From a virus (lineage: Duplodnaviria; Heunggongvirae; Uroviricota; Caudoviricetes), in the IMG/VR virus record IMGVR_UViG_3300028805_000076, positions 72,165 through 120,399 of that record: a stretch of 48,235 nucleotides of DNA. One strand, given 5' to 3'. Below the pieces are notes generated by a model. The model was not told the origin of the DNA. It ran no database searches and was given only the letters and a program-made list of their open reading frames with translations. Within the stretch, counting starts at the first letter, position 1. Each line of letters starts with the position of its first letter. The translations under genes were made by a program, and so were the position numbers. Of the stretch, positions 1 to 15,423 are shown piece by piece.

Positions 1-209
1 ATCAACCAGCATCTACTGACGAAGCTTTGGATGGAAACCTTGAAAAGATTAAGACTTGGAATTTCGTATTCAAGAACTGTACTTATAATGGAGTAAAGGT
101 TGATTCAAATAACTTCGGTAGCAACAACCAAGTAATATATCTTTACAATATAGGTAGAACTGGTCAAATTACAGATGCAGCAGCAGAACTTAATGTTACA
201 TTCGAATAA
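1..209 (+). CDS. 3' end of a gene truncated by the window edge; hypothetical protein
   Basis: Frame 3 is open from position 3 (QPASTDEALDGNLEKIK...) to TAA at 207-209, so the track's TTG27 start is internal. A terminator follows. Confidence 0.7.
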   Translation, partial: QPASTDEALDGNLEKIKTWNFVFKNCTYNGVKVDSNNFGSNNQVIYLYNIGRTGQITDAAAELNVTFE

Positions 210-232
210 TTTGTAAGATTGTTATTTTATGG

Positions 233-264
233 TGCGCGATAATTGAATTATCGCGCATTTTTTT
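233..264 (+). terminator. Intrinsic terminator
   Basis: 12-bp inverted repeat tgcgcgataatt (233-244) / aattatcgcgca (246-257) followed by T7. Confidence 0.8.
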
Positions 265-290
265 ATATTTATAGTAAAAGTACAACAACA

Positions 291-2294
291 ATGAGAAGAG
301 GTATATACATCGATAATTCATATCACTACGTAGAAGAAACTGGATATGAACCAAAGCAATGCTGCAAAAACATGGATGGTGTTATTCAATCACTTACTGA
401 AGCTACAGAAAAAAACGCAAAGGATATAACAAATAACACAGCATTGGATAATGCTCAACAAGGGCAAATAAATAGCAACACAGAAGTAAATAATGAACAA
501 GTTGCTCAAATCAGAGCATTGTCTTCGCAAACACGCTCAAATACAAATGCCATTGGGGATTTAGAGGACGATGTTGAATATATTTTAAATTCATTGAATG
601 ATATTTCAGAATCAATCAGTGCTATAACTGGAGAAGGAATCCAACACATCAATGAAAGGTTGGATACTGTTGATGATGAAATAGATGATATTGTGTCTGG
701 TCTTCAAGAAACAAACGATGCAGTTGATGCAATTGTTGAATCTGTAGATTCAATTCATATAGAAGGAGAAGAAAGCGGTTATACGACAGTTTACAACTTA
801 TTGGTTGATGGTGAAAACAGAGGTACTATAATTATTGATAATATTGCTCCTTTATACAATCTTATTGAAAATGAAAAAGAAGAAAGAAAACAAGAAGATG
901 AAAGATTAGAAGGTCTTATTAATCAAGAAGTTACAGATAGAGAAGAAGCAGCAGAAGAGGTTAATGATTTAATCAATGATTTAATCAATGCTGAAACAAG
1001 CCGTGCAACACAAGAGGAAGAGGCTATACGAAATGAAATGGCTTTAATCACTGAATCCATAAGTGGAATGCAAGACAATATTGATGTAATTGTAGATACT
1101 GTAAGCGGTGTTACTGAAAATCTTCAAGGCGAAATTGATGAATTGGCAGAAAATACTGAAAATGAAATAGAATCTGCAAAAACTAGAATAGATTCCATAG
1201 AAGACAAAATAGACGATTGTGATGATAAGATTGCTGAGTTGGATGAGAAAATAGATGAAGAAATTGCCAATAGGCAAGAAAGTGATACCAACATTTATAA
1301 CACAATTGAAAACACTAAGAATGAAATTTATTCAGCAATATCAGAATTTGAAACTGAAATAAGCAGCTTGTCAGATGATGTTTCAGACCTTTCTGATAAA
1401 TTAGATGCTGCTATTTCAGCACATTCGACTGACATTCAAGAATTGAGAAATGAAATTTCTGAAACAAAAGATTCTATTAATGAGGAAAAGAATAGGGCAT
1501 TAAGTGCTGAAACAGCTTTGAGTGATGCGTTAAACACTTTAGAGCAAGACGTACAAAATGATTTCGATGAAGTTGATTCCAAGATTGTAAACATTAATGA
1601 TAGATTGGATGAAATAGATGAAACGACAAGCACTTTATCAGATTCAATATCACAACTACAAGCAGATTTGGCAACAGAAAAGACTGATAGGGAAAATGGA
1701 GATGCAGAATTAAAGGAATATGCAGATTCAATTTCAAGAGTAACTGAAAATCTTTCTGGCGTTACAGACTCTTTGTCTCAACGTATTACAGAAAACACAA
1801 ATTCAATAAACGGCTTATCAAGCGATTTATCTGATTTGGAAAATGATGTTGCAGTTAATTCCGAAGCAATATTGGCTGTTAGCGGTGATGTAGCTACAAT
1901 CAATTCAACGCTTCCTACAAAGGTTGGCAAGAGCGAATATGAATCCTTCAAGGCAGAAATATCAAGTAGAGTTCTTGAAATTGAAACAGATTACTTGACT
2001 TCTGATGATATACAAGACTTAGCAACAAAGGAGTCTGTAAACGAAGTCGCTTCAAATGTTGCTGAAGTAGGGCAAAAGGTTGACCAAGTTTCTGCAACAA
2101 CTCAAGATATGCAGCAACAAATGTCTGAATATGCCGATGCCTTAAGCGAACTTAATCACAATTTTGAATCCATTATGAGTACTTTCAACGAAATTAGAGT
2201 ACAACACGAACAACTTGAATTTGATGTAACAGACCTTAAAGCAAGTGTTAGAGCAATCAAAGAATTACTTGGATTGAATACTCAAGAACCATAA
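291..2294 (+). CDS. Long acidic coiled-coil protein (667 aa), probable virion structural or fibre protein
   Basis: ATG at 291 follows an A-rich leader and a TATTTATA box (266-273); the track's TTG243 lies inside the terminator. Heptad-rich sequence with repeated E-x3-R-x3-(D/E) units (EKEERKQED, EVTDREEAA, EIANRQESD, EKNRALSAE, EKTDRENGD). Confidence 0.7.
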   Translation: MRRGIYIDNSYHYVEETGYEPKQCCKNMDGVIQSLTEATEKNAKDITNNTALDNAQQGQINSNTEVNNEQVAQIRALSSQTRSNTNAIGDLEDDVEYILNSLNDISESISAITGEGIQHINERLDTVDDEIDDIVSGLQETNDAVDAIVESVDSIHIEGEESGYTTVYNLLVDGENRGTIIIDNIAPLYNLIENEKEERKQEDERLEGLINQEVTDREEAAEEVNDLINDLINAETSRATQEEEAIRNEMALITESISGMQDNIDVIVDTVSGVTENLQGEIDELAENTENEIESAKTRIDSIEDKIDDCDDKIAELDEKIDEEIANRQESDTNIYNTIENTKNEIYSAISEFETEISSLSDDVSDLSDKLDAAISAHSTDIQELRNEISETKDSINEEKNRALSAETALSDALNTLEQDVQNDFDEVDSKIVNINDRLDEIDETTSTLSDSISQLQADLATEKTDRENGDAELKEYADSISRVTENLSGVTDSLSQRITENTNSINGLSSDLSDLENDVAVNSEAILAVSGDVATINSTLPTKVGKSEYESFKAEISSRVLEIETDYLTSDDIQDLATKESVNEVASNVAEVGQKVDQVSATTQDMQQQMSEYADALSELNHNFESIMSTFNEIRVQHEQLEFDVTDLKASVRAIKELLGLNTQEP

Positions 2295-2300
2295 GAATAA

Positions 2301-2337
2301 AAAAAAAGTTTCGAAGAATATCTTCGAAACTTTTTTT
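2301..2337. terminator. Bidirectional intrinsic terminator between convergent genes
   Basis: Perfect 17-bp inverted repeat aaaaaaagtttcgaaga / tcttcgaaacttttttt with an ata loop. Confidence 0.9.
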
Positions 2338-3934
2338 ATACTTGTTCAACTGAAGACAAAGCCTTTTCGTATTCCTCTTCAGAATCATCCCTATAGCTTA
2401 AGTCATCAATTACAGAACCACCAGTACTTGGGCGCATTGTATTGAGCCTTCTGAAATAGAAATGCAAGTCGTTATGCATTTCGACAATATCATCAATTGA
2501 TTTTGGAATTTTCTCGTCTTCTTCAAAAGCCATATAATCTTCTTTTGTCAGATTTGCCAAAGCTGCAAGATACTTGGTGTTTTCCTCTTGGAATATAATA
2601 TCAGTCTCACGTTCCTTGAGTTCCTTGTAATCTCTTACCAATTTGTCCCAATCAATTGAACATTCCTTTACAAAAGGAGGTACTTTGTCAACTGACAACC
2701 AAAATTCTATTTCTTTCCTTTCTGGTGTCATCAGTGCCTCATAAGTGTCTTGGTCTGTTTCCTTGTTAGGATAACCACAGCTCAATTCACATTCCTTTTC
2801 AGTGAATGTAGGTCTATCTGAAGGTTTTGTAATCAATATTCTGTTTCTAATTTCTGGACTAAAGCAAACAAGCAATACAGAAATTCGCTTATTGAACATT
2901 GTTATATATTTGTCAACATTATATTCAAAATCGTCAGATATATCGCAGCATAATAAATCCTCTTCTGCTTCAGCAATTTCTGTTGGTATCATTTTGCAGT
3001 TAAGTATGATTTCCTCATATTCTCTTTTAATATGTGGCTTTAATATTTCCTTTACATCCTTGGTTTTCAAAGATTTATAATCAACATTATTTTTTTCTGC
3101 CCATTCTTTGAGAATATTTGTTTTAACTTTACCTTTGAGTTCAACTTCTTCTCCATCGACAATTGTATATTGATGTAATACTTTTTTAACATCAGATGAC
3201 TGACTGTTGTTAGAAGCGGTATTGACATAATATATTGTGTCATTCAAATCAACCTTAAGATTATTTTCCAATGCCAATTCATACCAAGCTTGTCTTGCCT
3301 TTTTAGAACCAGCTTTTGTTAATGTATTACAATCAGTAACATATTCCTTCAAAGTCTTCTTAATCTTACCCTTACTTGCAATGTCCTTAACTGGTATTTG
3401 GAAGTTATATATCTTATCTATGTAATCATAGTACATATTTAGGAATTCAAGACCTTTACCGTTGAGAAGCAAGTCAATGGCTGGACTTAAAAAGTTATCA
3501 ATATAACCAGCCATTCGTCTTGATTTGATTGTATTACCAACTTTCTTTGTCTTTCCGCTGGCAAGTTTATCAGCATAATTCTTTCTTGAGAAGTTGATTG
3601 TACTGTCACAAAATTCGTCTATTCCTAATCCCATTTTATTAATCCCGTTATTCCATGCGTGACTAAAAAACAAGTCTTCGAATTCACAAACATCGGCATC
3701 TACACCGACATATTCTTTACCTTTTACGCTATTTCTACCGCCACCATTACTTATGTAAGGCTTTTCTTTGGTATATCTAAAAGAGCCTTCTTTTGGCATT
3801 TGGAAATTAAAACCGTCAGTATTAGACATTACATTTAAACCTAATGCGTTAACAACGGTTCCATCCAATGAAATGTCATATACTAAAATTGGTTTGTTTT
3901 CATTAGTTTTTTTGATTACATTAATTTGACTCAT
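2336..3934 (-). CDS. polB: Family B DNA polymerase, C-terminal part: 38-aa split-intein C-fragment plus 494-aa C-extein
   Basis: Starts MSQINVIKK...VYDISLDG (intein block F)...VMSN|TDGFNF. TDG completes polymerase motif C, followed by DADVCEF...MGLGIDE...RKNY and GKIKKT thumb-type motifs. Alternative ATG at 3946. Confidence 0.9.
   Translation of the reverse strand: MSQINVIKKTNENKPILVYDISLDGTVVNALGLNVMSNTDGFNFQMPKEGSFRYTKEKPYISNGGGRNSVKGKEYVGVDADVCEFEDLFFSHAWNNGINKMGLGIDEFCDSTINFSRKNYADKLASGKTKKVGNTIKSRRMAGYIDNFLSPAIDLLLNGKGLEFLNMYYDYIDKIYNFQIPVKDIASKGKIKKTLKEYVTDCNTLTKAGSKKARQAWYELALENNLKVDLNDTIYYVNTASNNSQSSDVKKVLHQYTIVDGEEVELKGKVKTNILKEWAEKNNVDYKSLKTKDVKEILKPHIKREYEEIILNCKMIPTEIAEAEEDLLCCDISDDFEYNVDKYITMFNKRISVLLVCFSPEIRNRILITKPSDRPTFTEKECELSCGYPNKETDQDTYEALMTPERKEIEFWLSVDKVPPFVKECSIDWDKLVRDYKELKERETDIIFQEENTKYLAALANLTKEDYMAFEEDEKIPKSIDDIVEMHNDLHFYFRRLNTMRPSTGGSVIDDLSYRDDSEEEYEKALSSVEQV
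3821..3934 (-). mobile_element. Split intein C-fragment (IntC, 38 aa), ends Ser-Asn with Thr+1
   Basis: Block F VYDIS and terminal MSN directly precede T(+1)DG (ACT codon at 3820-3818). Confidence 0.9.
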
Positions 3935-5213
3935 TGTTCCAAACATATTTTAAAAGACCGCAATCCCATATTTTCTTTGCTCCTATTTTTGAAGCCATCT
4001 CTTTTTCTGTTAGATGAATGTCTAATCCATATTTTTTGCTTAATATTTTTTTTCTAAAACCAAATTTATGAAATCGTTTTATTGTTCCATCCATATAGTA
4101 TTTATAATCTGGTTTTAATATACTTTCAAGTTTAAATCCTAAAATGGTGTAAAGATTATTGGTTAAAGAAGAAGTCCATCGTCTGTCAGCAAATGATTTA
4201 ACTGATAATGGTTGATATTTTTTTATAAAATATGAAAATAATTTACCTCCAATACCAATTGATAGATGATTTATATCAGTGGCAAACCTTGTCAATTCCC
4301 AATTATTATTTTTATCTTTAGTAAATGTCATTACGCCATATAAATTTTCTTTATTAAAAGCCCCTAAATATAGTGTTGATTTACATTTACCTTGTATATG
4401 GTTGTTTTCTAGAAAATTAGAAGCTGTTTCGTAATTTATTTCATGAACAGTGCATAATCTGCCAAATATTTTAGGTAAATCATAATCAAAACCTAACAAA
4501 TGCTTTAATTTGGATTTAACAATGTCTTTGTGTAATATATATTCATCTTCAAATATTTGAATCAATTTTATGTTTTTATGTTCACAAGCTTCTGTTTTCA
4601 TTAAATGATAATTCTTATTCTTGTTACTGTGCCAAAACAATCCATTAAATTCTATACCTATTTGTAACCTTGGAATATATATATCTATTTCATTTCCATT
4701 AAGTAATGTTCTATCATTTAATAAGACTATCTCGTCTTTACCTAATAAGCTTATTATATAATCGGCAATTTCTTCTTCTGGTTTAGATTTGCTTGCATAA
4801 CAATGAGAGCAGCCACCATTTGGTGAAGTTATATGGTCACATGCAATCTTAACAAATGTTTGACCACATTTTTTACATTTGATTGTTATTTTTGAATGAC
4901 TGTTCTCATATTCTGTTTCGATATTAGGAAATTCATAAATATCACCGAATCTTTCATACGAAGACTTGATAAAAACGTTATAATTATACTTGTTCCATTC
5001 TTTGGCATATCTTTTACCGCATTCTGGGCATCCTTGACCTTTCATATGATTTTTTGGGGTTTGATAAAAAGGCCCATGAATTGGACAGATAATCTTCACT
5101 TTTGTCCTTTGATTTCTATATTCAGATTCTGAATAATCGTATTTACAATTGTGAATTTCATTTGAACGTTTGATGAAAATTTCCTTGTTTAATCTATATA
5201 AATCACGTTTCAT
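3921..5213 (-). CDS. Free-standing homing endonuclease: Zn-ribbon-like repeats, Vsr/EDxHD-like nuclease, C-terminal GNAT/Mom-like (Hef-like) domain
   Basis: CPIHG..F..H..GQGCPEC and CKKC..GGCSHC repeats; IDIYIP...IGIEFNGLFWHS...IFEDE nuclease motif; C-terminal NHIQG...WELTRFA...GGKLF...SFADRRW...IWDCG. Overlaps both polymerase halves (ATGA at 5210-5213). Confidence 0.8.
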   Translation of the reverse strand: MKRDLYRLNKEIFIKRSNEIHNCKYDYSESEYRNQRTKVKIICPIHGPFYQTPKNHMKGQGCPECGKRYAKEWNKYNYNVFIKSSYERFGDIYEFPNIETEYENSHSKITIKCKKCGQTFVKIACDHITSPNGGCSHCYASKSKPEEEIADYIISLLGKDEIVLLNDRTLLNGNEIDIYIPRLQIGIEFNGLFWHSNKNKNYHLMKTEACEHKNIKLIQIFEDEYILHKDIVKSKLKHLLGFDYDLPKIFGRLCTVHEINYETASNFLENNHIQGKCKSTLYLGAFNKENLYGVMTFTKDKNNNWELTRFATDINHLSIGIGGKLFSYFIKKYQPLSVKSFADRRWTSSLTNNLYTILGFKLESILKPDYKYYMDGTIKRFHKFGFRKKILSKKYGLDIHLTEKEMASKIGAKKIWDCGLLKYVWNNESN

Positions 5214-7654
5214 TTATCAAATGACAATATTTTATTGTTTAAATATTGGATTTGAGCCATTGCAACCTTTGTTTTTGGTTCAGCCTTAATTAATGATAAT
5301 AAATATTTGGTTTTATCATTATCCATATTTAATAATTTATAATCAAATCTATCAAACTTTCCGTTATTAAACATATTAGCAGATAATTTAATAAATTTAT
5401 CATCCACAAATATAATATTACCTTTTATTTCATTTGAATAATATTCAAGTCGTGTTTCATTATTTATGCTTGAAGGTTTTATCTCTTTTCTGTTTGAATC
5501 ATATAACGAATGGTCTTCTGTAACTTCAACACAAGTATCTTCATCTTTGACTTGATAAATATCTTTTGTTGTATAATGCCTATATATGTAATTTACATCG
5601 CTCCATCCACTTCTACATAAAACGTAATAATCCTTTTTACTAGTATCATATTGTCGGTTCAATATGTCTGTTTGTATTTCATTTTCATTAATCAATTCTG
5701 ATATTTCCTTAATATCTATTAAGCCGTTTTGTTTATATTTAATAAACAACGGTGTATCACCAACAAAACTATCTCCAACGATTGGCTCATACCCAATACT
5801 TTTGAAATGAGAAATCATCAATCTCAAGCATTGTCTGCCAATACAAGTTACCATTTCTGCTGCTTGTGTATTTCCGAATGGGAACAAAGAAGGTGCGCCA
5901 AAAGAACCAAAAACGCTATTGCCCAATACTTTAAGTGGGCTTTGTTTTTTATCATTTGCGTTCTTAATAATCTTCTGCTTATGTATTTCACCATTGATTT
6001 GATATATTTCCTCGTTGGTGAGATTTTCTTCTTTAAGCCTTTTCTTCAATTCCTCAATCTTGCTACCAGCTTCTGCTTTCAATCCCTTGTAATGCTCTCT
6101 ATATGTAAGAACGTAGTTGAGCATATTAAGCATTGAATCGTTTCCATCAAGTACATTGTGTATCCACCATGTAAGCATTATTGAAGGATAAAGTGAATTA
6201 AAGTCAAGCTTTACGATTCTGTCAACATATCCTACTTTTAAGAGTCTTGATAATCCACCAGTGAATGATTTTGAAACACCAAATGATGGAACCGCAATAC
6301 CGTTTTCATAGCACCAAGCAAGCATAATCAGTTTCCAAATACTCGCAGTACCCATTGTACAAGCCCTTTGGAATGTTGTAGGAATCATTTTGGAGATTAG
6401 GAAGTTTGCCTCATTCAAAGTAAGCTCCACCTTATCAGTTTCCCATAAGTCATCAAGCAAATATCTTTTGACAATGTATTTTCCGTCAGTTTCTGTAAAT
6501 CCTTCTTCTAAAGGTTTGCTTTTACCTATTTGATACCATTCACCGTTTTTATCGTTGAATGCATATTTATTGACTTTATCATCCCATATGGTACTGATTT
6601 TGTTACCCTTGATATATACACGATTCTCCTTTTTCAAGCCAAGATATTGTGTCACATATTTCAAGTTTGCCTTTTTAATGTCTGAATCGGTTGCTTGTGC
6701 TCGTCTTACGGCATGCATTGAGTCGAGAACGGTTGTACCCCACATTTTTGTTTGATGGAAATATTCAACCTCTCCACCCAATTTCAGTACACTTTCTCTT
6801 TTCTCCTTGTATATTTCATGGGTAAAATACCTTAAAGTCATTTCTTGGAATGTTTCTGCACCAAAATCATCCCATCTAACAATAATAAAATTCCAGTCAA
6901 AATTTTCTGAATTATGACCAGCTATTTCATCGGGTTTCTCGTCTCTAATAATACGGATAAATGTCTCTATCGCAATATGTTCAGCAATTTCTCTTTCTTC
7001 TTTTGTATCACCGTCAACTTCAATAACAGTTTCAAACCCTTTGTTTGTTCTTACTCCGATGTGGGTAATCATATCCTTTTTAGGGTCCAAACCAGTTGTT
7101 TCAATATCCCAAACAAGTCTTTTGGTTTCGTCATATCCTTCATACCCTTTGAACAGTCTGATTCCACTTTCAATCATAAACTGTTCTACAACACTTACAG
7201 ACAAGAATTCCTTCTCACTATTTGTTATAGCTTTTCCATCCTTCTTCTTCTTTGGGGATAATGGAGTACCAGCTTCAAAGAAGAATTGTTGGAATCTTAC
7301 CCAAGACATTTTCTTTGTAGCATAAAACATATAGTTATACCCATTTGTCACTCTTTCATCTTTGGAATTTTCGCTTTTATCTACTGTTAGTGGCGTAACA
7401 CGTATTCCGTATTTGTTAAGCGCCTTTATAATTTCGCGTCTATTTCCGCCAAACATTCGGACACAAGCGCTTTTCTTTGCCCATACGAACGGTTTGAAAT
7501 CTATCAGTTTGTATCTTTTTGTACCGTCTTTTTTATTGAATATTACTGCCGCTTGCTCGTCTTCATATCCACATTCTATATTTACAACCATTTCCATTGG
7601 ATTGAACCCTTGTAGGAAATCGTTGACCTTTGAGCTAATATCTGCTGAAAACAT
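5210..7654 (-). CDS. polB: Family B DNA polymerase, N-terminal part (3'-5' exonuclease, motifs A and B) plus 186-aa split-intein N-fragment
   Basis: ExoI WDIETTG, ExoII GHNSENFD, ExoIII YLLDD, motif A DFNSLYPS, motif B KVLGNSVFG, then IVGD|SFVGDTPL. ATG at 7654, with an in-frame TTG at 7663. Confidence 0.93.
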   Translation of the reverse strand: MFSADISSKVNDFLQGFNPMEMVVNIECGYEDEQAAVIFNKKDGTKRYKLIDFKPFVWAKKSACVRMFGGNRREIIKALNKYGIRVTPLTVDKSENSKDERVTNGYNYMFYATKKMSWVRFQQFFFEAGTPLSPKKKKDGKAITNSEKEFLSVSVVEQFMIESGIRLFKGYEGYDETKRLVWDIETTGLDPKKDMITHIGVRTNKGFETVIEVDGDTKEEREIAEHIAIETFIRIIRDEKPDEIAGHNSENFDWNFIIVRWDDFGAETFQEMTLRYFTHEIYKEKRESVLKLGGEVEYFHQTKMWGTTVLDSMHAVRRAQATDSDIKKANLKYVTQYLGLKKENRVYIKGNKISTIWDDKVNKYAFNDKNGEWYQIGKSKPLEEGFTETDGKYIVKRYLLDDLWETDKVELTLNEANFLISKMIPTTFQRACTMGTASIWKLIMLAWCYENGIAVPSFGVSKSFTGGLSRLLKVGYVDRIVKLDFNSLYPSIMLTWWIHNVLDGNDSMLNMLNYVLTYREHYKGLKAEAGSKIEELKKRLKEENLTNEEIYQINGEIHKQKIIKNANDKKQSPLKVLGNSVFGSFGAPSLFPFGNTQAAEMVTCIGRQCLRLMISHFKSIGYEPIVGDSFVGDTPLFIKYKQNGLIDIKEISELINENEIQTDILNRQYDTSKKDYYVLCRSGWSDVNYIYRHYTTKDIYQVKDEDTCVEVTEDHSLYDSNRKEIKPSSINNETRLEYYSNEIKGNIIFVDDKFIKLSANMFNNGKFDRFDYKLLNMDNDKTKYLLSLIKAEPKTKVAMAQIQYLNNKILSFDK
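5213..5770 (-). mobile_element. Split intein N-fragment (IntN, 186 aa), Ser1
   Basis: Block A SFVGDTPLFIK begins at AGT 5770-5768 and block B is VEVTEDHSL. No block F/G occurs before the TGA stop. Confidence 0.9.
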
Positions 7655-7724
7655 AGGATTCAATATTTTATTGGAAATATATAAATTTTTTTTCTAAAAA
7701 GGAAATTAACATTTATTAATATAC

Positions 7725-7759
7725 AAAAAAAAACGGTTTGAGTTAATTCAAACCGTTTT
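7725..7759 (-). terminator. Intrinsic terminator downstream of the 7761-8225 gene
   Basis: 12-bp inverted repeat aaaacggtttga / tcaaaccgtttt, with a poly-U tract on the minus strand. Confidence 0.8.
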
Positions 7760-7760
7760 A

Positions 7761-8225
7761 CTAATTCAATTCATCTAAATCTATTAATTGTTTTGGCTCG
7801 ACCCTTAAGCACCATAAGCCATATATGATTGTTATAATACTAATGCAAAGAAACAAAAATGCAATGTCAAACCACCATAAAGCTGCGAAGAATACATTTA
7901 ATTGAAAAACAGAATCATTCCTTAAGCAACGTTTAAAAAATATTTTTTTTTGATAATCATGTCCTAATTTATAATGTAAATAATCAGATTTATTTGTGCG
8001 AATTGTTACTTTTGACAAAAATTTGACAGTATCATTTGGAATGACAGTAAAGCAATATATTGTATCTGAATCAACTACATCAATATGCTTTTCAGCTATT
8101 TTTCCTTGAACCGATTTGTCGATTGTTGAATTACATATAATTCTGCCAAACAAAGATACTATCGATATGACAACAAATAGTATTCCAACAATAAAATATA
8201 AAACACCAAAATCGTTTTTTTCCAT
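7761..8225 (-). CDS. Membrane protein with two predicted TM segments
   Basis: Hydrophobic stretches VLYFIVGILFVVISIVSLFG and AALWWFDIAFLFLCISIITIIYGLW. ATG at 8225. Confidence 0.7.
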   Translation of the reverse strand: MEKNDFGVLYFIVGILFVVISIVSLFGRIICNSTIDKSVQGKIAEKHIDVVDSDTIYCFTVIPNDTVKFLSKVTIRTNKSDYLHYKLGHDYQKKIFFKRCLRNDSVFQLNVFFAALWWFDIAFLFLCISIITIIYGLWCLRVEPKQLIDLDELN

Positions 8226-8313
8226 ATTAATCAATTAAAATAATTCTTTAATGATTATATGAAAATAAATTATAATATATAAAGATAAAATGTTAAAAAT
8301 AATTAATTATTAT

Positions 8314-8973
8314 TTAGTGTCTGAATTTGCTCATCTTCATCCTTGATGTAATTGGTGCTTGTACCGAATCAGACATTGCTCCCAAATCTGAAGCTACTTG
8401 ATTACCATCTTGAGAATAGTATTTATCCTTTTCATCATATGCTTGTTGGTCTAATGCGTTTGCATTGTCATTATGGCCTCTTTTTCTCATCTGTCTTGCC
8501 AAATACCCCTTTTCTGCTGGTGAGAATGTATCCAAAATCTCATTGACAGAATTTTCTATCATTGTTATCAAAGCGCTTTCTGTAAGTCTTATTTTTTTCA
8601 TACCGTATGTTTTATTATTTGCGTTAATTTCGTAGATGCAATCATCTAAATTTATTTCCTCTGGATTCTGTATGTCATTTACAACCTCGTCTCCCAAATA
8701 GTCAGCTACAAGTTTCTGTACTGTATTGTACGTATAATGAAGAGGTATTGGTTCTCCATCGGCTGTTTCTGCATAATCCTTGTCAATGTTATATTTGAAA
8801 CCGTCTATTGTTATTGTTCTGCTTTCGTTGTCATATTGGTAATTACCATCTTTCAATTGTAATGCCAATTGCTTTCTGAATTCGGCTGCTGATTTTTTCC
8901 TTTCAGCATCCATTTTCATTGATTCAACGAATATCTTGTTTTTTGCGGTTTCGCTAATAATTATTTTTTTCAT
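8314..8973 (-). CDS. Hypothetical protein, probable internal head protein
   Basis: N-terminus MKKIIISE and an internal repeat MKKIRLTESALITMIENSVNEIL; upstream TATTTATA box at 9033-9026. Confidence 0.65.
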   Translation of the reverse strand: MKKIIISETAKNKIFVESMKMDAERKKSAAEFRKQLALQLKDGNYQYDNESRTITIDGFKYNIDKDYAETADGEPIPLHYTYNTVQKLVADYLGDEVVNDIQNPEEINLDDCIYEINANNKTYGMKKIRLTESALITMIENSVNEILDTFSPAEKGYLARQMRKRGHNDNANALDQQAYDEKDKYYSQDGNQVASDLGAMSDSVQAPITSRMKMSKFRH

Positions 8974-9117
8974 AAGTTATCTGTTTTTTTACATAACTAT
9001 ATTAAAATAGTATACTATTACTTAATATAAATATACTATTTATAAGAAAAAAACATATAGAATTTATTGAAAAGCCATTAAGAAATAAAGGCAAATAATT
9101 AAATATCACTTACTTTT

Positions 9118-10422
9118 TTATTGTTTTAAAATATCTATTATATCATTTACATTATGAAAACATTTATCACCTAAAAAAGTGTCTTGTTTTTCTTTTGTGA
9201 AATATAAAAGTTGAATATTGTTGTCTTTACAAAATTGTTGTTTTATAATATCATTTTTATGTTGCGAATCAAATCCTTGTTTACCGCCCAAACCATTGAT
9301 AATTTCAAAATGGAATTTTCCTTGACATTCTATTGCAATATTTTTTTGAGGAATAAAAAAATCAAGTTTTAAAGGTAGAACATTTTTTAAACCATTTATA
9401 ACATGCTGAGTTTTATATTCAATTTTATTTTCTTCTAGCGTTAATCTCATTTCTCGTTCTAATTTACTTTCTGAACATGTGGGACATCCGCAACCATTTA
9501 AATGAAGATAATATGATTGATTAAAATTCCCGTGGATAGGACACTTTATATTAATTTTATAATTGCTATTATAAATTGTGCTTTCGATATTATTAACATC
9601 ATAAATATATTTATTGCCGTGAATTTTATTAAATCTTTCAATTAATTCGTTTGTTGTTGGCTTAACTTTTTTATTACATTTTGGGCAACCATTTCCACAT
9701 TGTATTTTTGATGGTGCTGCCATCCATTTATAACCACAAATTAAGCACTTAAACATAATTTTTTCACCCATTGATTTATAATCGTCAATAATTTCTAAAT
9801 GTCTATTTTTAAGATTTGAATCTACTATAAATTCATTCACTTTTTTTTTATGTTTTTCACGAGCACAAAATGGACAACCCTTTTGCAATACTATGTGTTC
9901 ATGAGGTGTTTTTGTAAAAATTCCGTGTTCTTTACAAATAATTTGAATTTTATCATTTGGTGAAGAGTCTTTAACTAAACTATAATCATATAAATCACCA
10001 AATATTTTAACTGCTTCTGAAATTATCATATTTTTTGTTCTAAAATTATCAGAACATTTTGGACAACCTTGCTTTTGATTAATGTGCGAATAGGCAATTT
10101 TTTCAAAATCGCCATGTTTTTTACAAGTAATTATTACTTTATCTGTAGAATTATTACATATACTTTTATCATATGTAAAATTATCACCAAAAATTTCTTT
10201 AGACCATTTTATAAAATTTTTGGTTGTAAATTTTTTATTTTTAGTCCTAATTTTACCATTATAAACATCTTGCGGTAACGCTTCAATATATTCATTTGTA
10301 TATGTATCAAATAAAATAACTTTAGTTCGATTGTTTATGTATATTGTTTTATCGAAAGTAAATCTATCACCATATTTTTCAACACAACGTTTTTCAAATG
10401 TTTCTTGCGTGGTTTTTCTCAT
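9118..10422 (-). CDS. Free-standing putative homing endonuclease (Zn-ribbon-like repeats plus Vsr/DUF559-like nuclease)
   Basis: Four Cys-rich repeats (C..HG.F...H...GCP.C type) and C-terminal LKLDFFIPQKNIAIECQGKFH...DIIKQQFC; same repeat type as 3921-5213. Confidence 0.75.
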   Translation of the reverse strand: MRKTTQETFEKRCVEKYGDRFTFDKTIYINNRTKVILFDTYTNEYIEALPQDVYNGKIRTKNKKFTTKNFIKWSKEIFGDNFTYDKSICNNSTDKVIITCKKHGDFEKIAYSHINQKQGCPKCSDNFRTKNMIISEAVKIFGDLYDYSLVKDSSPNDKIQIICKEHGIFTKTPHEHIVLQKGCPFCAREKHKKKVNEFIVDSNLKNRHLEIIDDYKSMGEKIMFKCLICGYKWMAAPSKIQCGNGCPKCNKKVKPTTNELIERFNKIHGNKYIYDVNNIESTIYNSNYKINIKCPIHGNFNQSYYLHLNGCGCPTCSESKLEREMRLTLEENKIEYKTQHVINGLKNVLPLKLDFFIPQKNIAIECQGKFHFEIINGLGGKQGFDSQHKNDIIKQQFCKDNNIQLLYFTKEKQDTFLGDKCFHNVNDIIDILKQ

Positions 10423-10493
10423 AGAATATCTATTTATATATAAATATATTATTTATAATAATAACAGAATTTTATATAAAAAATAATTACAAA

Positions 10494-10871
10494 ATGACTT
10501 TTTATATTAGAAAAAATAGCATATTACCACAAATACGGATGGAGTTGATTGAAGATGGTCGCAACGATTTTTGGAAATTCCATGACTGTGTACAGAATGC
10601 TGATATAACATTCTCTATGAAGAATATGAATACTGGTCTATACAAGATATTGAATGCTCCTTGCTACGTGAAGCTCAAGGAAAACAATGGATGTACGGAA
10701 CAATATGTAATTTGCTATGACTGGAAACAAAGGGATACAAAGGAAAGTGGTGTGTACGAAGGTACGTTTGACATTACCTTTGCTGATGATATAAAGTCTG
10801 ATGTTACAACTTATCCAAGCGGTCTGCAACGTATGCCAATAAGAGAGAAATTAATGATTAATATAGACTAA
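10494..10871 (+). CDS. Small beta-rich virion protein, BppU N-terminal (baseplate upper) domain-like
   Basis: Pattern ITFSMKN...YDW...DT..SG.YEGTFDITF resembles BppU-N domains (recalled, not searched); TATTTATA upstream at 10450-10457. Confidence 0.5.
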   Translation: MTFYIRKNSILPQIRMELIEDGRNDFWKFHDCVQNADITFSMKNMNTGLYKILNAPCYVKLKENNGCTEQYVICYDWKQRDTKESGVYEGTFDITFADDIKSDVTTYPSGLQRMPIREKLMINID

Positions 10872-10872
10872 T

Positions 10873-11031
10873 ATGGAAAAAATTAGAGATTACGAATTGG
10901 ATAAGGATGAGCAGATGATTGGTGGTGAACCAAATGGTACACCAACCTATTTCCATGTCAATGAATCATTAATAAATGAAATCATAAAGGATGAAATAGA
11001 GTATATGATATTAGAAATGAAAAATGACTAA
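10873..11031 (+). CDS. 52-aa small protein, below the ORF-track cutoff
   Basis: ATG10873 MEKIRDYELDKDEQMIGGEPNGTPTYFHVNESLINEIIKDEIEYMILEMKND-TAA. Tightly packed after the previous stop and carries the VNES-L-x-EII motif seen in other late genes. Confidence 0.6.
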   Translation: MEKIRDYELDKDEQMIGGEPNGTPTYFHVNESLINEIIKDEIEYMILEMKND

Positions 11032-11074
11032 AACACTCTACCTATAACTGATTATATTAAATAATTTATAAAAA

Positions 11075-12223
11075 ATGGTAATAACAAATGAATTAAGGGA
11101 TTTGTTTAAGATAGTAAGGACAAAATTAGGTGCACCAATCAGACAAGTACAATTGACTGATGACCAATTATGTGACTTGTTGGAAATATGTGTTGGAGAT
11201 TATGCTGAAAAGGTTCAAAACTGGATAATTGAGCAGAATTGGCTCAATCTTTACGGTAAGAATTCATTCTTGCAGAATCCCCAAGACCTTGCATTCGCAT
11301 TGACCACAAGAACAATGGATTTTTCAAGGGATTTCAGCTATTGGTTCTCTCGTGAAGTTGGGCTGCAACAGAGAGGTTCTTATGAGCTTAAAAAGGATTT
11401 CTTTAGGGTTGAAAGAGGAAAACAATGTTATTTAATACCCGCTGGACGTGAAATAAATCGAGTAATGTATGTTACCCCATCCACTACAAAAGCAGCTTTG
11501 TATGGTAATTTAGGCACTCTAGATACTGGTATTGGTGGAGGCTTTGGCCAATATGGTAATATGGGTAATGGAATGGGTATTACTGGCTTCTATGTTGGTT
11601 CTGCTTATGACACAGTATTGCTTGCATCGGACTTGAAGTTCAAGAATTCGTTGTTGAGAGGTGATTTGTGTTATAAAGTAACTGCTGGTCCAGATGGTAC
11701 TCATATAATTCACTTGCTATCAACTCCAGGTTCACCAAATATGATGGGTGGAATTGCCTCTGATGATTCTTGGGGTTGGAACAAATTTGCCAACTGTATT
11801 GTTTGGTATACATATTACGATACATCTCAAGGCAATGGGGATTCTTTGGCTTGTGCATTGGAAAACAAGGATGATATACTTATTACACCAGACCAAATAC
11901 CTTTGAACAAGATGAGGTTTGAGTTGATGAACGAACCAACGCAAAACACTATACGTCAGCTATTGGTTGCTGAAGCAATGATTACTCTTGGTATAATACG
12001 AGGTACAAATAGTGGTGTTATTAAGATACCAGATGCAGAACTTCAACTTGACTACAATATGTTGCTTGATTTGGGTAAAGCAGAAAAGGAGAGGGTATAT
12101 ACTGACTTGAAGGAAAGACTTGAAAGAATGCTTCCTTGGAATATGATTAAGAATATGAACGATATGACAAATCAGACAATAGAAATATTGAAGGCAAAAC
12201 CGTTAGGATTATATGTAATATAA
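11075..12223 (+). CDS. Neck / head-tail connector protein (T4 gp13-like)
   Basis: LGAPIRQVQLTDDQL N-terminus, Gly-rich middle, C-terminal LGIIRG...IP...L.LDY..LL..GK.EKE...L..., a typical layout for gp13-like neck proteins of large phages. Confidence 0.6.
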   Translation: MVITNELRDLFKIVRTKLGAPIRQVQLTDDQLCDLLEICVGDYAEKVQNWIIEQNWLNLYGKNSFLQNPQDLAFALTTRTMDFSRDFSYWFSREVGLQQRGSYELKKDFFRVERGKQCYLIPAGREINRVMYVTPSTTKAALYGNLGTLDTGIGGGFGQYGNMGNGMGITGFYVGSAYDTVLLASDLKFKNSLLRGDLCYKVTAGPDGTHIIHLLSTPGSPNMMGGIASDDSWGWNKFANCIVWYTYYDTSQGNGDSLACALENKDDILITPDQIPLNKMRFELMNEPTQNTIRQLLVAEAMITLGIIRGTNSGVIKIPDAELQLDYNMLLDLGKAEKERVYTDLKERLERMLPWNMIKNMNDMTNQTIEILKAKPLGLYVI

Positions 12224-13660: not shown

Positions 13661-15370
13661 TCATTTTGTTCTTTTCTTTATTTTATTTAAAACTGAATTC
13701 ATGGATAATACTTTTTCAGTTTTATTTTGTGCTATATTTGAAATTGTAATTGGTTTCTTTCTGTTTTTTTCAATAAAACTTTTAATTGAATCTATATCAG
13801 TAGCTGATTCTGAAAATTTAATTTTTTTCTTTAGACTTTCATATTCAGATACAGACATAATGATGGAATATTTAAGATAATCATCATCATCAATTATTGA
13901 CAAATTGTGTTTTGCCCTAGTAATTGCAACATATTTCAAGTTCCTTTCTTGTTCCTTCTCCCAATCCTTTTCCATTCGCTTTAGGTTAATGTCAAACAAA
14001 GACCAACACAAAATATGTACATTATTGCATTCAAGACCCTTTGCCTTATGAATGGTAGATAATGAAATTCCATCCTTTTCATCATTGTTAAATATCTTGT
14101 CAATCCTTTCAAGCAATTCCGTTCTAGTTTTTAATCCTTCAGACAATATGATTATTGTATTAATGTTGTCTATTAGACTTCTACAAGTTGAGTTGTTAAG
14201 AGCAGTATATATATCACACATTTCCCTATTACATACAAATTCTACTGTCTTGAAAAATTGTCGATATAGCTGTGATATTATACCATCATTTGTCAAAGAC
14301 TGCCCTATGTTATCTGCACTTGTGCCTTCAATAAGTTCAACAATATCCTCATAGCATCCTTTGCCATTCATATGGCATTTCTTACCCATAGCTATTAGGT
14401 TCAAATAAAGTCTAACCAAAGGAGCGTTGTTTCTGCACAGTACCATATCACCATCTTGAATGTTTTCAATCTTGCCGTTAAAATTTATGTTGCCACATAC
14501 ACCGAAACAGTTCCTCTCAATACCAAATACAATTTGGGCAGCAAAGTCAACAATTGAGTCATCACATCTGTAGCAAATTGGAAGTGGCATTGATATTGTG
14601 TTTGGTGTTTTTGACAAATTATCAAACGATTGTGAATCAGCACCAGAAAATGCATATATTGATTGAAATTTATCTCCACAAAATATATATCTTGTACTTA
14701 TCTTTCTACATTTAAGTACAATTTGCTGTTGTGCTATTGACAAGTCTTGCGCTTCATCAACAAATATATAGTCATAACTTGGGAATCTATACGGCAGTAC
14801 ATTTGGCAACCAAACCATATCAGCATAATCTATTGTTAAAATATTTTCTTTGCCCCATTTTAGAAGCTTTTTTGTCACTTCCATTTCATCATACAATGGC
14901 ATTATTCCAAACTTATTTGCTGTCAATGCAATTCCTTTTATACCATCACATAAATTGTTTCTACAAAAAATCAGCAAGTGCTTTATATTTGATATATATT
15001 TTTGCTGCTCGTTGTTTGACATTTTATAGAAATATTCAGTATATTTTTCAATATTTGAATATAGTTCCTTATGATACTTGAACTCATCTACAGAAGGATT
15101 AAAATCGTTATTCATTTTAATTATACTGTATCCCAAACTGTGAATAGTAGAAATTTTCAAGTTTTCAATACCAACTGATTTTTTTGTTATATCATTGATA
15201 ATATCTTTATTGAATGCACAGTAAAATTTTGTAGTATCGGCTCCTATCGCTTTCATTATCTCAATTAGCGTTGAAGTCTTACCACAACCAGCATAAGCTT
15301 GTATCATAATATTCCCATTTCCATTGACAACTTTGTCTATAATTTCCTTTTGATATAAACTTAATTCCAT
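13661..15370 (-). CDS. UvrD/Rep-like superfamily 1 helicase
   Basis: Walker A AYAGCGKT, Walker B VDEAQD, GDKFQSIYAFSGA, STIHKAKGLE, YVAITRAK. ATG at 15370 (the track start is TTG15397). Confidence 0.92.
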   Translation of the reverse strand: MELSLYQKEIIDKVVNGNGNIMIQAYAGCGKTSTLIEIMKAIGADTTKFYCAFNKDIINDITKKSVGIENLKISTIHSLGYSIIKMNNDFNPSVDEFKYHKELYSNIEKYTEYFYKMSNNEQQKYISNIKHLLIFCRNNLCDGIKGIALTANKFGIMPLYDEMEVTKKLLKWGKENILTIDYADMVWLPNVLPYRFPSYDYIFVDEAQDLSIAQQQIVLKCRKISTRYIFCGDKFQSIYAFSGADSQSFDNLSKTPNTISMPLPICYRCDDSIVDFAAQIVFGIERNCFGVCGNINFNGKIENIQDGDMVLCRNNAPLVRLYLNLIAMGKKCHMNGKGCYEDIVELIEGTSADNIGQSLTNDGIISQLYRQFFKTVEFVCNREMCDIYTALNNSTCRSLIDNINTIIILSEGLKTRTELLERIDKIFNNDEKDGISLSTIHKAKGLECNNVHILCWSLFDINLKRMEKDWEKEQERNLKYVAITRAKHNLSIIDDDDYLKYSIIMSVSEYESLKKKIKFSESATDIDSIKSFIEKNRKKPITISNIAQNKTEKVLSMNSVLNKIKKRTK

Positions 15371-15423
15371 TTCAAATGTTAAAATATTATAATACAATTA
15401 TATGTAAAATAATTTACAAATAA

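Follow-up and report, generated by a model that had tools for sequence, protein, structure and literature searches.

A phage family-B DNA polymerase gene fractured at motif C, with a split intein predicted to reunite its product

Genes encoded in two open reading frames (ORFs), each with one half of a split intein, that are separated by a stand-alone endonuclease gene of the GIY-YIG or Vsr-like kind, were described as "fractured genes" from marine and freshwater GOS metagenomes (Dassa, London, Stoddard, Schueler-Furman and Pietrokovski, 2009; PMC2677866). Moreover, natural cysteine-less split inteins of phage and archaeal family-B DNA polymerases (PolB) have been published and characterised, namely Aes123 PolB1, CP21, LCGC14, PolB16 OarG, MIJ3/PA5oct and Neq Pol (PMC11923092, PMC12707363, PMC10189870, PMC6892783). 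The locus analysed here, within a 48,235-nucleotide stretch (the window) of a huge rumen phage from sheep gut with a genome of about 387 kb, belongs to both known kinds. It is very probably, judging from its sequence, a fractured PolB gene reunited by a naturally split class-1 intein acting through oxyesters (Ser1, Thr+1). A preliminary description had announced a new natural cysteine-free split intein; the natural split intein at GD/TD (the slash marks the junction) stands, as orthologues are contiguous there, while the novelty was overstated, several cysteine-less PolB split inteins having been published.

As in the fractured genes, the host gene lies in two ORFs around a Vsr-like endonuclease gene, whose 3' end extends into the gene for the C-terminal intein half (IntC), by 6-69 bp there and 14 nt here; furthermore, the later endonuclease loss that forms part of the fractured-gene model is seen here in one relative, L018 (PMC2677866). 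The present locus differs in its host protein, broken at PolB motif C, in its intein family, in the 70-aa LAGLIDADG remnant carried by the N-terminal intein half (IntN), in the GNAT-like C-terminal domain of its endonuclease, and in its sheep-gut origin.

Neq Pol of Nanoarchaeum equitans (PDB 5oxw/5oxx/5oxz) is likewise a natural split intein of a family-B polymerase, at the same site and with Ser1 and Thr+1, but it belongs to a thermophilic archaeon, is encoded at two loci far apart rather than around an endonuclease gene, and has a short IntN (a 98-aa chain) and a penultimate His; its sequence similarity to the present intein is marginal. Aes123 PolB1 (CL/CLm intein; PDB 9hth; PMC11923092), together with its relatives CP21 PolB1, LCGC14 PolB2 and GOM-OPS-1 PolB2 (PMC12707363), is also a natural cysteine-less phage PolB split intein. 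These are likewise split at the endonuclease position, their NX motif is Lys/Arg-His and their block B reads TxDH; however, their IntN has 115-120 aa and no LAGLIDADG remnant, they come from T4-like phages and marine sediment, and BLAST found no similarity between them and the present intein. PolB16 OarG (PDB 8cpn; PMC10189870), from a sheep gut metagenome and also in PolB motif C, works without cysteine, being of the same cysteine-less type as the present intein, and needs its NX histidine; by contrast, it is inserted two residues later (GDTD/S), with Ser+1 and an atypical split (15 + 168 aa), and its local block F resemblance (...DDYVYD...) is not significant (E 2.4). The Pseudomonas jumbo phages MIJ3/PA5oct (PMC6892783) share a two-ORF jumbo-phage PolB, a split intein with Ser1 and a homing endonuclease ORF in between, whereas their endonuclease is of the HNH type, the junction has Ser+1 and penultimate His (...LVHN/S), and no sequence relation between the inteins was detectable. 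The best structural match to the whole IntN, tail included, is PI-TkoII, the Pol-2 intein of Thermococcus kodakarensis (PDB 2cw7), which is among the Ser1/Ser+1(Thr+1) inteins listed in PMC10189870. PI-TkoII and other LAGLIDADG cis inteins are contiguous, with a complete endonuclease domain, whereas here the domain has shrunk to four helices, its acidic catalytic residue is gone and the chain stops at that point.

The locus comprises three minus-strand genes: the N-gene (7654..5210; ATG at 7654, alternative TTG upstream at 7663), which encodes the 628-aa PolB N-extein and the 186-aa IntN; a 430-aa endonuclease ORF (3921..5213) in a frame other than that of the N- and C-genes; and the C-gene (ATG at 3934 to 2336), which encodes the 38-aa IntC and the 494-aa PolB C-extein. 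Starting the last at the alternative ATG (3946) would lengthen IntC by 4 aa. This layout is real, and every feature of it reported in the preliminary description was recovered. The N-gene reads ...YEPIVGD/SFVGDTPL..., with 186 aa past the junction, and the C-gene opens with an IntC ending ...NVMSN, followed by TDGFNF...; the N-gene TGA (5210-5212) overlaps the endonuclease ATG (ATGA at 5210-5213), the C-gene ATG lies in a 14-nt overlap with the endonuclease 3' end, and, since 5212 - 3934 = 1278 = 3 x 426, both polymerase genes share one frame in the window. The exteins add up to 1122 aa (628 + 494). A terminator-like hairpin (7730..7759, minus strand; 12-bp stem, then a T run) lies upstream of the three genes, where the previous gene ends, a bidirectional terminator (2301..2337; 17-bp stem) lies directly 3' of the C-gene stop, and no comparable terminator was found inside the three-gene block.

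The N-extein (5771..7654, minus strand) contains, besides the exonuclease domain, motifs A (DFNSLYPS) and B (KVLGNSVFG) and the first of the two motif C Asp (...PIVGD), with Pfam matches to DNA_pol_B, DNA_pol_B_exo1 and RNase_H_2 and a match to phrog_262 DNA polymerase (E 1.3e-53); its orthologue aligns to motif C of KOD polymerase. The C-extein (2336..3820 with its stop, minus strand) opens with Thr+1 and the second motif C Asp (TDGFNFQMP) and aligns to the KOD palm/thumb. The comparison with intein-free orthologues that had been proposed as a check yielded 13 sequences in which a single frame runs across ...IVGD/TDGFNF... (or ...IVMD/TDG...), which fixes the junction exactly. The corresponding stretch of KOD polymerase is ...YSDTDGF..., and the intein separates the two catalytic motif C Asp at the position also used by the Neq Pol split intein, whose IntC ends ...HN/TD.

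The polymerase might instead be a dying gene or an assembly artefact, with another polymerase replicating the genome, a reading to which the incompleteness of the window's own record (32%, CheckV) lends something but which we consider hardly credible. The same layout is found in L001, a 387.5-kb IMG/VR contig 99% identical to the window, and in a 31.7-kb contig from another sheep-gut sample and study, which covers 2303-7700 and differs there by 88 substitutions and by a single inserted base outside the genes; with three independent assemblies, an assembly accident is ruled out. Searches at E <=0.001 returned 1155 N-gene and 331 C-gene relatives, and hundreds of protein clusters, from contigs as long as 393 kb, repeat the layout. 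Furthermore, purifying selection on both exteins is strong, with synonymous to non-synonymous codon changes between the window and L001 of 32:4 in the N-extein and 10:1 in the C-extein. The L001 genome, 100% complete, has one PolB match and no match to PolA or DnaE; thus, the split PolB is the only recognisable DNA polymerase in a near-identical complete genome.

The Hint lobe of IntN (intein residues 1-112; 5435..5770, minus strand) was delimited by alignments, conservation, an AF2 model and fold matches, and contains Ser1 in block A (SFVGDTP), the NX motif Arg64-His65 and Thr84..His87 of block B (VTEDHS). GD/S, Arg64-His65, Thr84 and His87 are invariant in 117/117 N-genes. That the intein needs no cysteine is still a conditional proposal, because Cys52, away from the junctions, is kept in 114/117 IntN sequences. 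Pfam and NCBIfam intein models recognised neither half; the IntN family profile, on the other hand, has Aes123 PolB1 (9hth) as its best PDB match (E 4.6e-4), and the single sequence has Neq Pol, weakly (E 0.43). The IntN model (pLDDT 86) retrieved inteins as its top Foldseek matches, and fold comparison (VIA) gave PI-TkoII a Z of 10.7 (rmsd 3.4, 181 aligned residues), Aes123 PolB1 8.7, PolB16 8.0 and Neq N/C 7.4.

Beyond this lobe, the tail of IntN (intein residues 113-186; 5213..5434, minus strand), about 70 aa, is a decayed LAGLIDADG endonuclease remnant; of the two earlier suggestions, decayed endonuclease or linker, the first is borne out. An hhalign comparison of the tail with the LAGLIDADG domain found in cis relatives, which bear Pfam LAGLIDADG_3/Hom_end, scored 95.9% (E 5.9e-9), and the 181-residue match to PI-TkoII agrees with this. 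Its four helices (AF2 pLDDT 93-98) have lost the acidic residue of helix 1 and about 90 aa of the LAGLIDADG core, while the second-motif region and the next helix persist. PI-TkoII, TliVMA and PI-PfuI align up to residue 188-191 of the model, in whose numbering five extein residues precede the intein. The tail is found in 117/117 N-genes, with IntN lengths of 182-208 aa.

IntC (3821..3934, minus strand) carries block F (LVYDISLDG) and block G (NALGLNVMSN), ending in penultimate Ser37 and terminal Asn38; its profile has Neq Pol IntC (5oxx_B) as its best PDB match, a weak one (E 0.89). The proposed set of Ser1, Thr+1 and penultimate Ser recurs among relatives: besides the GD/S of the N-genes, 120 C-genes show terminal Asn and Thr+1 (120/120 each) and penultimate Ser (117/120). 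The modelled IntN-IntC complex reached an ipSAE of 0.88 (best control 0.28), a mark attained by 58/80 solved complexes and 2/110 mismatched pairs, with at least 86% of contacts agreeing between runs and partner pLDDT of at least 72. Similar split-intein complexes are already solved, so this score indicates likeness to known complexes rather than proof of binding, and it may come from the predictor's memory of them.

Some observations count against splicing. Besides the lack of recognition by the Pfam and NCBIfam intein models, the penultimate His, which usually helps Asn cyclisation in inteins, is replaced by Ser, and IntN evolves faster than the exteins (synonymous to non-synonymous changes of 4:3 in IntN and 3:1 in IntC between the window and L001, and 11:8 and 7:1 between L018 and L022). 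The last two would fit splice-dead halves that only clamp a two-subunit polymerase together non-covalently, and the modelled interface would serve such a clamp too. This reading is nevertheless unlikely, since a clamp would not preserve residues needed only for the chemistry (Ser1, Arg64-His65, Thr84, His87, the terminal Asn and Thr+1), which are invariant in more than 100 diverged sequences; moreover, with the break between both catalytic Asp of motif C, it would leave a bulky 224-aa Hint domain in the active site. The split arrangement probably works, its halves being rejoined.

Rejoining could also be placed before the protein stage, through RNA splicing, frameshifting, ribosome hopping or stop-codon readthrough giving a single precursor that splices in cis. 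The shared frame of the halves and the overlapping or abutting genes speak for it; against it, no group I intron or other Rfam intron match was found at the locus, and the 1278 nt between the halves contain, in a different frame, an endonuclease ORF that is conserved and under selection (18:3 between the window and L001). In the relatives L002, L003-6, L007, L008, L018 and L022, the two halves do not share a frame, and every C-gene starts from an ATG of its own, 33-38 codons ahead of the junction; relatives also place the halves 4.6-5.7 kb apart with opposite-strand genes in between (four such ORFs in L003-6; in L007 an endonuclease, a TnpB on the opposite strand and a zinc-finger protein). 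N-gene stops vary among TGA, TAA and TAG, so that no single recoding would serve. Joining at the RNA or ribosome level is impossible in these relatives, which makes a cis precursor in the window exceedingly improbable.

The middle gene had been taken for an EDxHD/Vsr-like homing endonuclease, and its family profile matches I-Bth0305I (PDB 3r3p; E 1.5e-4) and, for the C-terminal domain, the GNAT protein 2bsw (E 2.5e-4). It comprises two zinc-finger-like modules, the EDxHD/Vsr-like core (...EFNGLFWHS...IFEDE...) and the GNAT-like domain, matches phrog_3339/phrog_559 (E ~1e-94), and resembles Hef-like homing endonucleases from phages of Campylobacter and Bacillus. In L018 the gene is reduced to its 5' and 3' ends, the near-identical L022 having it in full; the split has therefore outlived the endonuclease there. 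Presence of the cassette is polymorphic among relatives: split, cis and intein-free polymerases intermingle on the N-extein tree, where starred branches force at least eight changes, and the N-exteins of P0007 (split) and L016 (intein-free) are 97% identical. Related metagenomic phage PolBs (P0029, P0039, P0040, P0045) carry cis inteins at the same site, with LAGLIDADG domains that look intact.

In the trans-splicing that we infer, and on which the polymerase would depend, the three genes would probably form one transcription unit, from which the ribosome would yield three separate proteins: PolB-N-IntN (814 aa), the endonuclease and IntC-PolB-C (532 aa). IntN and IntC would co-fold into a single Hint domain, Ser1 would undergo an N-O acyl shift aided by Arg64-His65 and Thr84..His87, Thr+1 would attack the resulting ester, and Asn38 would cyclise, the ligated exteins giving a 1122-aa polymerase with motif C restored (...PIVGDTDGFNF...). 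As IntN still has its LAGLIDADG remnant, the break falls within the former endonuclease domain; a selfish endonuclease gene has probably inserted into this already decayed domain of an ancestral pol-c cis intein and, by landing there, broken the polymerase gene. The endonuclease probably carries the whole cassette into intein-free alleles, which we infer to be its target.

The polymerase locus lies on the minus strand and consists of three genes. The N-gene (7654..5210, with an in-frame TTG at 7663) encodes 628 aa of a family-B DNA polymerase (PolB), in which Pfam and PHROGs recognized the exonuclease domain and motifs A and B, followed by 186 residues (IntN) starting SFVGDTP. Its TGA is overlapped by the ATG of a 430-aa ORF in another frame (5213..3921), which PHROGs assigned to the homing endonucleases (phrog_3339/559, E about 1e-94), and the C-gene begins with an ATG at 3934, 14 nt inside the end of this ORF, with a further ATG at 3946. 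The C-gene product opens with 38 residues (IntC) ending in ...NVMSN and continues as TDGFNF..., the polymerase portion being 494 aa in total. On minus-strand reading, the N- and C-genes have a common frame, because 1278 = 3 x 426; each coordinate in the preliminary description was reproduced by the ORF listing and by this direct reading. We infer that protein trans-splicing joins the two polymerase portions into one PolB of 1122 aa, and this is very probably the best explanation for the locus.

The three-gene block is flanked by a strong terminator-like hairpin (7759-7730) and by a bidirectional terminator hairpin with a perfect 17-bp stem and A7 and T7 runs outside (2337-2301), and no hairpins of similar strength were found inside the block. 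The hairpin at 2301-2337 separates a converging 683-aa gene (243-2294, plus strand) from the polymerase C-gene. The window's own viral record (120 kb) was estimated by CheckV as 32% complete, and the same three genes were present in a 99% identical, 100% complete IMG/VR contig of 387.5 kb (L001; complete genome G001). The DNA was found in sheep gut metagenomes, leaving out bovine and other gut runs (word shares 0.16-0.38) when the habitat was assigned, and another sheep-gut sample, from a different study, gave a 31.7-kb contig that runs through all three genes (2303-7700), differing by 88 substitutions and by one inserted nucleotide outside the genes. Searches of 50,697 deposited phage genomes by blastn and tblastn revealed no cultured relative and returned only pieces of Hef-like endonucleases and distant PolBs of Nostoc, Anabaena, and Salinibacter phages (identity <= about 25%).

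When five pieces were searched by tblastn against 24 related viral loci, N- and C-exteins were contiguous, in one frame and without insert, in 13 orthologues, the translated intein-free proteins reading ...PIVGD|TDGFNF... or ...AIVMD|TDGINF.... The GD|TD of one intein-free orthologue aligned with ...YSDTDGF... of KOD polymerase, i.e., motif C, and therefore the insert parts the two catalytic aspartates, lying between the first Asp and Thr-Asp (D|TD; junction GD|TDG), as had been proposed from the window alone. The IntC chain of the Nanoarchaeum equitans PolB split intein (Neq Pol) in the PDB ends in ...VLHN|TD, so that this split intein sits at the same point, which we take to be the site that carries the InBase allele name pol-c. 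The tryptic peptide across the predicted ligated junction is SIGYEPIVGDTDGFNFQMPK.

The intein halves are encoded on either side of a free-standing endonuclease gene, in distinct ORFs that have a stop or start of their own. In seven related loci with the same element, IntN (183-191 aa) was likewise followed by TGA, TAA, or TAG, and the C-gene had a separate ATG, lying 33-38 codons ahead of the junction, with the intein halves in different frames in six of the seven. Joining at the ribosome or at the RNA level was also considered. Readthrough of the TGA adds only seven residues before a TAA, so the genes cannot be fused that way, and no group I or II intron was detected by Rfam in window positions 1-12000 at E up to 1; the sole Rfam match, a sub-threshold L20 leader at 7719-7812, lies on the terminator and was taken as chance. 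Contigs of the metatranscriptome runs X20-X22 matched parts of the N-extein, of IntN (5473-5729), of the endonuclease gene, and of the C-extein in short exact pieces, none of which crosses a gene boundary or links 5770 to 3820; since DNA carry-over is possible, these pieces prove neither transcription nor absence of RNA splicing. From the arrangement of the genes, the polymerase halves are split at the gene level, and not joined by RNA or ribosome.

Regarding the intein itself, no intein family in Pfam or NCBIfam matched IntN, any of its seven relatives, or the C-gene, and recognition required profiles, relatives, and structure. Of the search against intein models suggested in the preliminary description, the standard models were silent, but the intein blocks could easily be read from alignments, and a family profile of IntN matched the structure of the Aes123 PolB1 intein (9hth, E 4.6e-4). 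An exhaustive search with IntN retrieved 680 representatives at E <= 0.001, and a word-indexed search yielded 1155 N-gene clusters; the C-gene clusters number in the hundreds (clustering at 90% identity in both cases). Among 117 full N-genes, with IntN lengths of 182-208 aa, the GD|S junction, Ser1, Arg64-His65, and the block B residues Thr84 and His87 (Thr-x-x-His, as in class 1 inteins) were invariant, and in 120 C-genes blocks F and G (YVYDIS...N|T) ended in an Asn followed by Thr+1 without exception. The penultimate His, typical of inteins without defining them, is replaced by Ser in 117 of the 120 (His in two, Thr in one), and this Ser also occurs in the cis relative P0038; the family thus upholds the set of Ser1, Thr+1, and penultimate Ser first read from the window. 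Arg64-His65, upstream of block B, aligns with a Lys-His of the Aes123 intein, and such an Arg/Lys-His pair matches the "NX" motif, reported as peculiar to Ser1 inteins (PMC10189870). Cys52 (LCRSGW) was kept in 114 of the 117 split IntN and replaced by Ser in three, four cis relatives having Thr there, and Cys80 of IntN was variable.

Modelled alone with AF2, IntN reached a pLDDT of 86 and adopted the horseshoe (Hint) fold. Inteins occupied 22 of the first 23 rows of a Foldseek search of the PDB with this model, none with E <= 0.001, and VIA-align returned Z scores of 7-10.7 to about 20 intein structures, including PI-TkoII (10.7), Aes123 PolB1 (8.7), PolB16 (8.0), and Neq N/C (7.4). The IntN-IntC complex model gave an ipSAE of 0.88 against 0.28 for the best control, a result that shows likeness to split-intein complexes already solved, and not binding, since such complexes exist; in calibration, 58 of 80 solved complexes attained this ipSAE mark, as did two of 110 mismatched pairs. 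Contact agreement between runs was at least 86% and partner pLDDT at least 72, and in the model the two halves would associate into one domain.

Cis inteins occur at the same site in related PolBs. Four of them (P0029, P0039, P0040, and P0045) are about 350 aa long and carry Pfam LAGLIDADG_3/Hom_end domains, P0036 has 264 aa, and P0038 is a mini-intein of 189 aa. P0029, whose LAGLIDADG domain is complete, seems to have Gln at the position of the C-terminal Asn (...NNVVAQ, then the C-extein; P0029:942-962). A comparison by hhalign of 13 IntN tails with the four cis endonuclease domains supported homology (95.9% probability, E 5.9e-9), and LAGLIDADG inteins superpose on the IntN model through its last helix, both of which bear out the earlier suggestion of a decayed endonuclease. 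Tail helix 1 (...LSANMFNNG...) is degenerate: the Asp or Glu of the cis relatives is replaced in it by Asn, Ala, or Gly. The tail retains the second-motif region (...ILN....K.F...) together with the next helix, at which the chain ends. The two-helix catalytic and beta-sheet core is incomplete, about 90 aa of it being missing, with nothing after the post-motif-2 helix, and a deletion of about 90 aa is common to P0036. According to these comparisons, the tail is a LAGLIDADG remnant, not an endonuclease. AF2 modelled it as four confident helices, and all 117 split IntN have it, although the cis mini-intein P0038 lacks it. Lys168 and Ala172, on the conserved side of its last helix, contact IntC residues 30-31 in the complex model. 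Tentatively, and with rather less confidence than we place in trans-splicing, the four-helix remnant might be an adaptor co-opted for fragment capture, with the last-helix face (Lys168, Ala172, Gln175, and Tyr176) packing on IntC block G. If so, it would represent a structurally new natural split-intein class, broken inside the former endonuclease domain and not at its edge, and the aggregation of IntN, a limitation of other cysteine-less split inteins, might also be countered by such a pre-folded helical subdomain.

The gene between the polymerase halves resembles, at the DNA level, the Hef-like endonuclease genes that jumbo phages of Campylobacter and Bacillus carry. A profile built from eight of its relatives (A7) matched the catalytic domain of I-Bth0305I (3r3p) with E 1.5e-4 over core residues 142-223, in agreement with the Vsr/EDxHD type assigned in the preliminary description, and the single sequence matched it with E 0.082. 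I-Bth0305I is the characterized member of the Vsr-like/EDxHD family, which was originally recognized in fractured genes (PMC3239194, PMC2677866). Residues E175, D177, E188, W194, H195, D223, and E224 were invariant, and the 430-aa protein is a predicted EDxHD/Vsr-like homing endonuclease. Its C-terminal part of about 170 aa (residues ~245-430; window 3924-4480, minus strand), conserved in the eight relatives, matched a GNAT fold through the family profile (2bsw, glyphosate N-acetyltransferase, E 2.5e-4). Compared with L001, the gene showed 18 synonymous and three non-synonymous codon changes, which indicates selection on it. Many additional copies or pieces of genes from this endonuclease family, often as tandem repeats of the ~65-aa zinc-finger module, lie near the polymerase locus in these phages (L001:5942-6340; L007:5346-7361; L008:2415-4094 and 14265-15419; L022:6272-7387; L023:15049-17632).

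The gap between the polymerase halves differs in content among related loci. One endonuclease gene fills it in L002, L008, and L022. The L007 gap measures 5.7 kb; besides an endonuclease it holds a zinc-finger-repeat protein and, on the opposite strand, a TnpB, and it acts as a landing pad for mobile genes. The TnpB (L007:13190-14500, minus strand; OrfB_IS605 and Cas12f1-like TNB) stands beside two zinc-finger-repeat endonuclease-like genes. In L003-L006 the gap is 4.7 kb and contains four opposite-strand ORFs of 627, 392, 287, and 116 aa (L003:10585-14887, minus strand), for which no Pfam match was found. In L018 the gap is only 263 nt, with about 160 nt between the genes and no intact endonuclease gene (L018:10500-10663, against L022:10500-12409). 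Of the gene seen in the near-identical L022, ~20 nt at the start and ~70 nt at the end remain; therefore, the nuclease gene was deleted and the split retained.

Over two pairs of sequences, the exteins showed 86 synonymous and 13 non-synonymous codon changes, denoting strong constraint, which was weaker but still real for IntN (15:11) and IntC (10:2). In the complete genome G001, PolB was matched once, and PolA and DnaE not at all. It appears that a clade of huge gut phages relies on protein trans-splicing to obtain its only recognizable replicase. A tree of 40 N-extein sequences interleaves the split, cis, and intein-free states, and its starred branches force at least eight changes of the "split" label. 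Moreover, the N-exteins of P0007 (split) and L016 (intein-free; L016:8001-11312) are 97% identical, almost all of their 21 differences lying more than 200 residues upstream of the junction. Such a pair suggests that the whole cassette was either gained recently or lost precisely, and together with the interleaved states indicates that the cassette is gained or lost on short time scales.

Natural cysteine-less split inteins are few and are wanted as protein-ligation tools under oxidizing conditions (PMC11923092, PMC12707363). Those published in PolBs include Aes123 PolB1 (PMC11923092), CP21, LCGC14, and GOM-OPS-1 (PMC12707363), PolB16 OarG (PMC10189870), MIJ3/PA5oct (PMC6892783), and Neq Pol. 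PolB16 OarG also comes from sheep gut; however, its insertion is two residues later and its split is atypical, whereas the MIJ3/PA5oct split intein is associated with an HNH gene. The locus has the fractured-gene layout of Dassa et al., 2009 (PMC2677866), in which the endonuclease gene likewise ends in an overlap with the start of IntC. Since cysteine-less PolB split inteins were published before, the window intein belongs to a known kind, as a large uncharacterized family. The split-intein interpretation of the preliminary description is supported, but the novelty and interest it claimed were overstated. Features peculiar to the IntN/IntC family are the penultimate Ser, the retained LAGLIDADG remnant, and the break inside the old endonuclease domain.

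The locus opens a large unannotated Ser1/Thr+1 split-intein family with two odd conserved traits, the penultimate Ser and a 70-aa helical IntN remnant. Furthermore, several steps of the life cycle proposed for such elements can be seen among its relatives: cis inteins with a full or a decayed LAGLIDADG domain; split inteins with the endonuclease, with the gap colonized (TnpB, opposite-strand cassette), or with the endonuclease deleted; and an intein-free allele, this last difference being seen between polymerases with 97% identical N-exteins.
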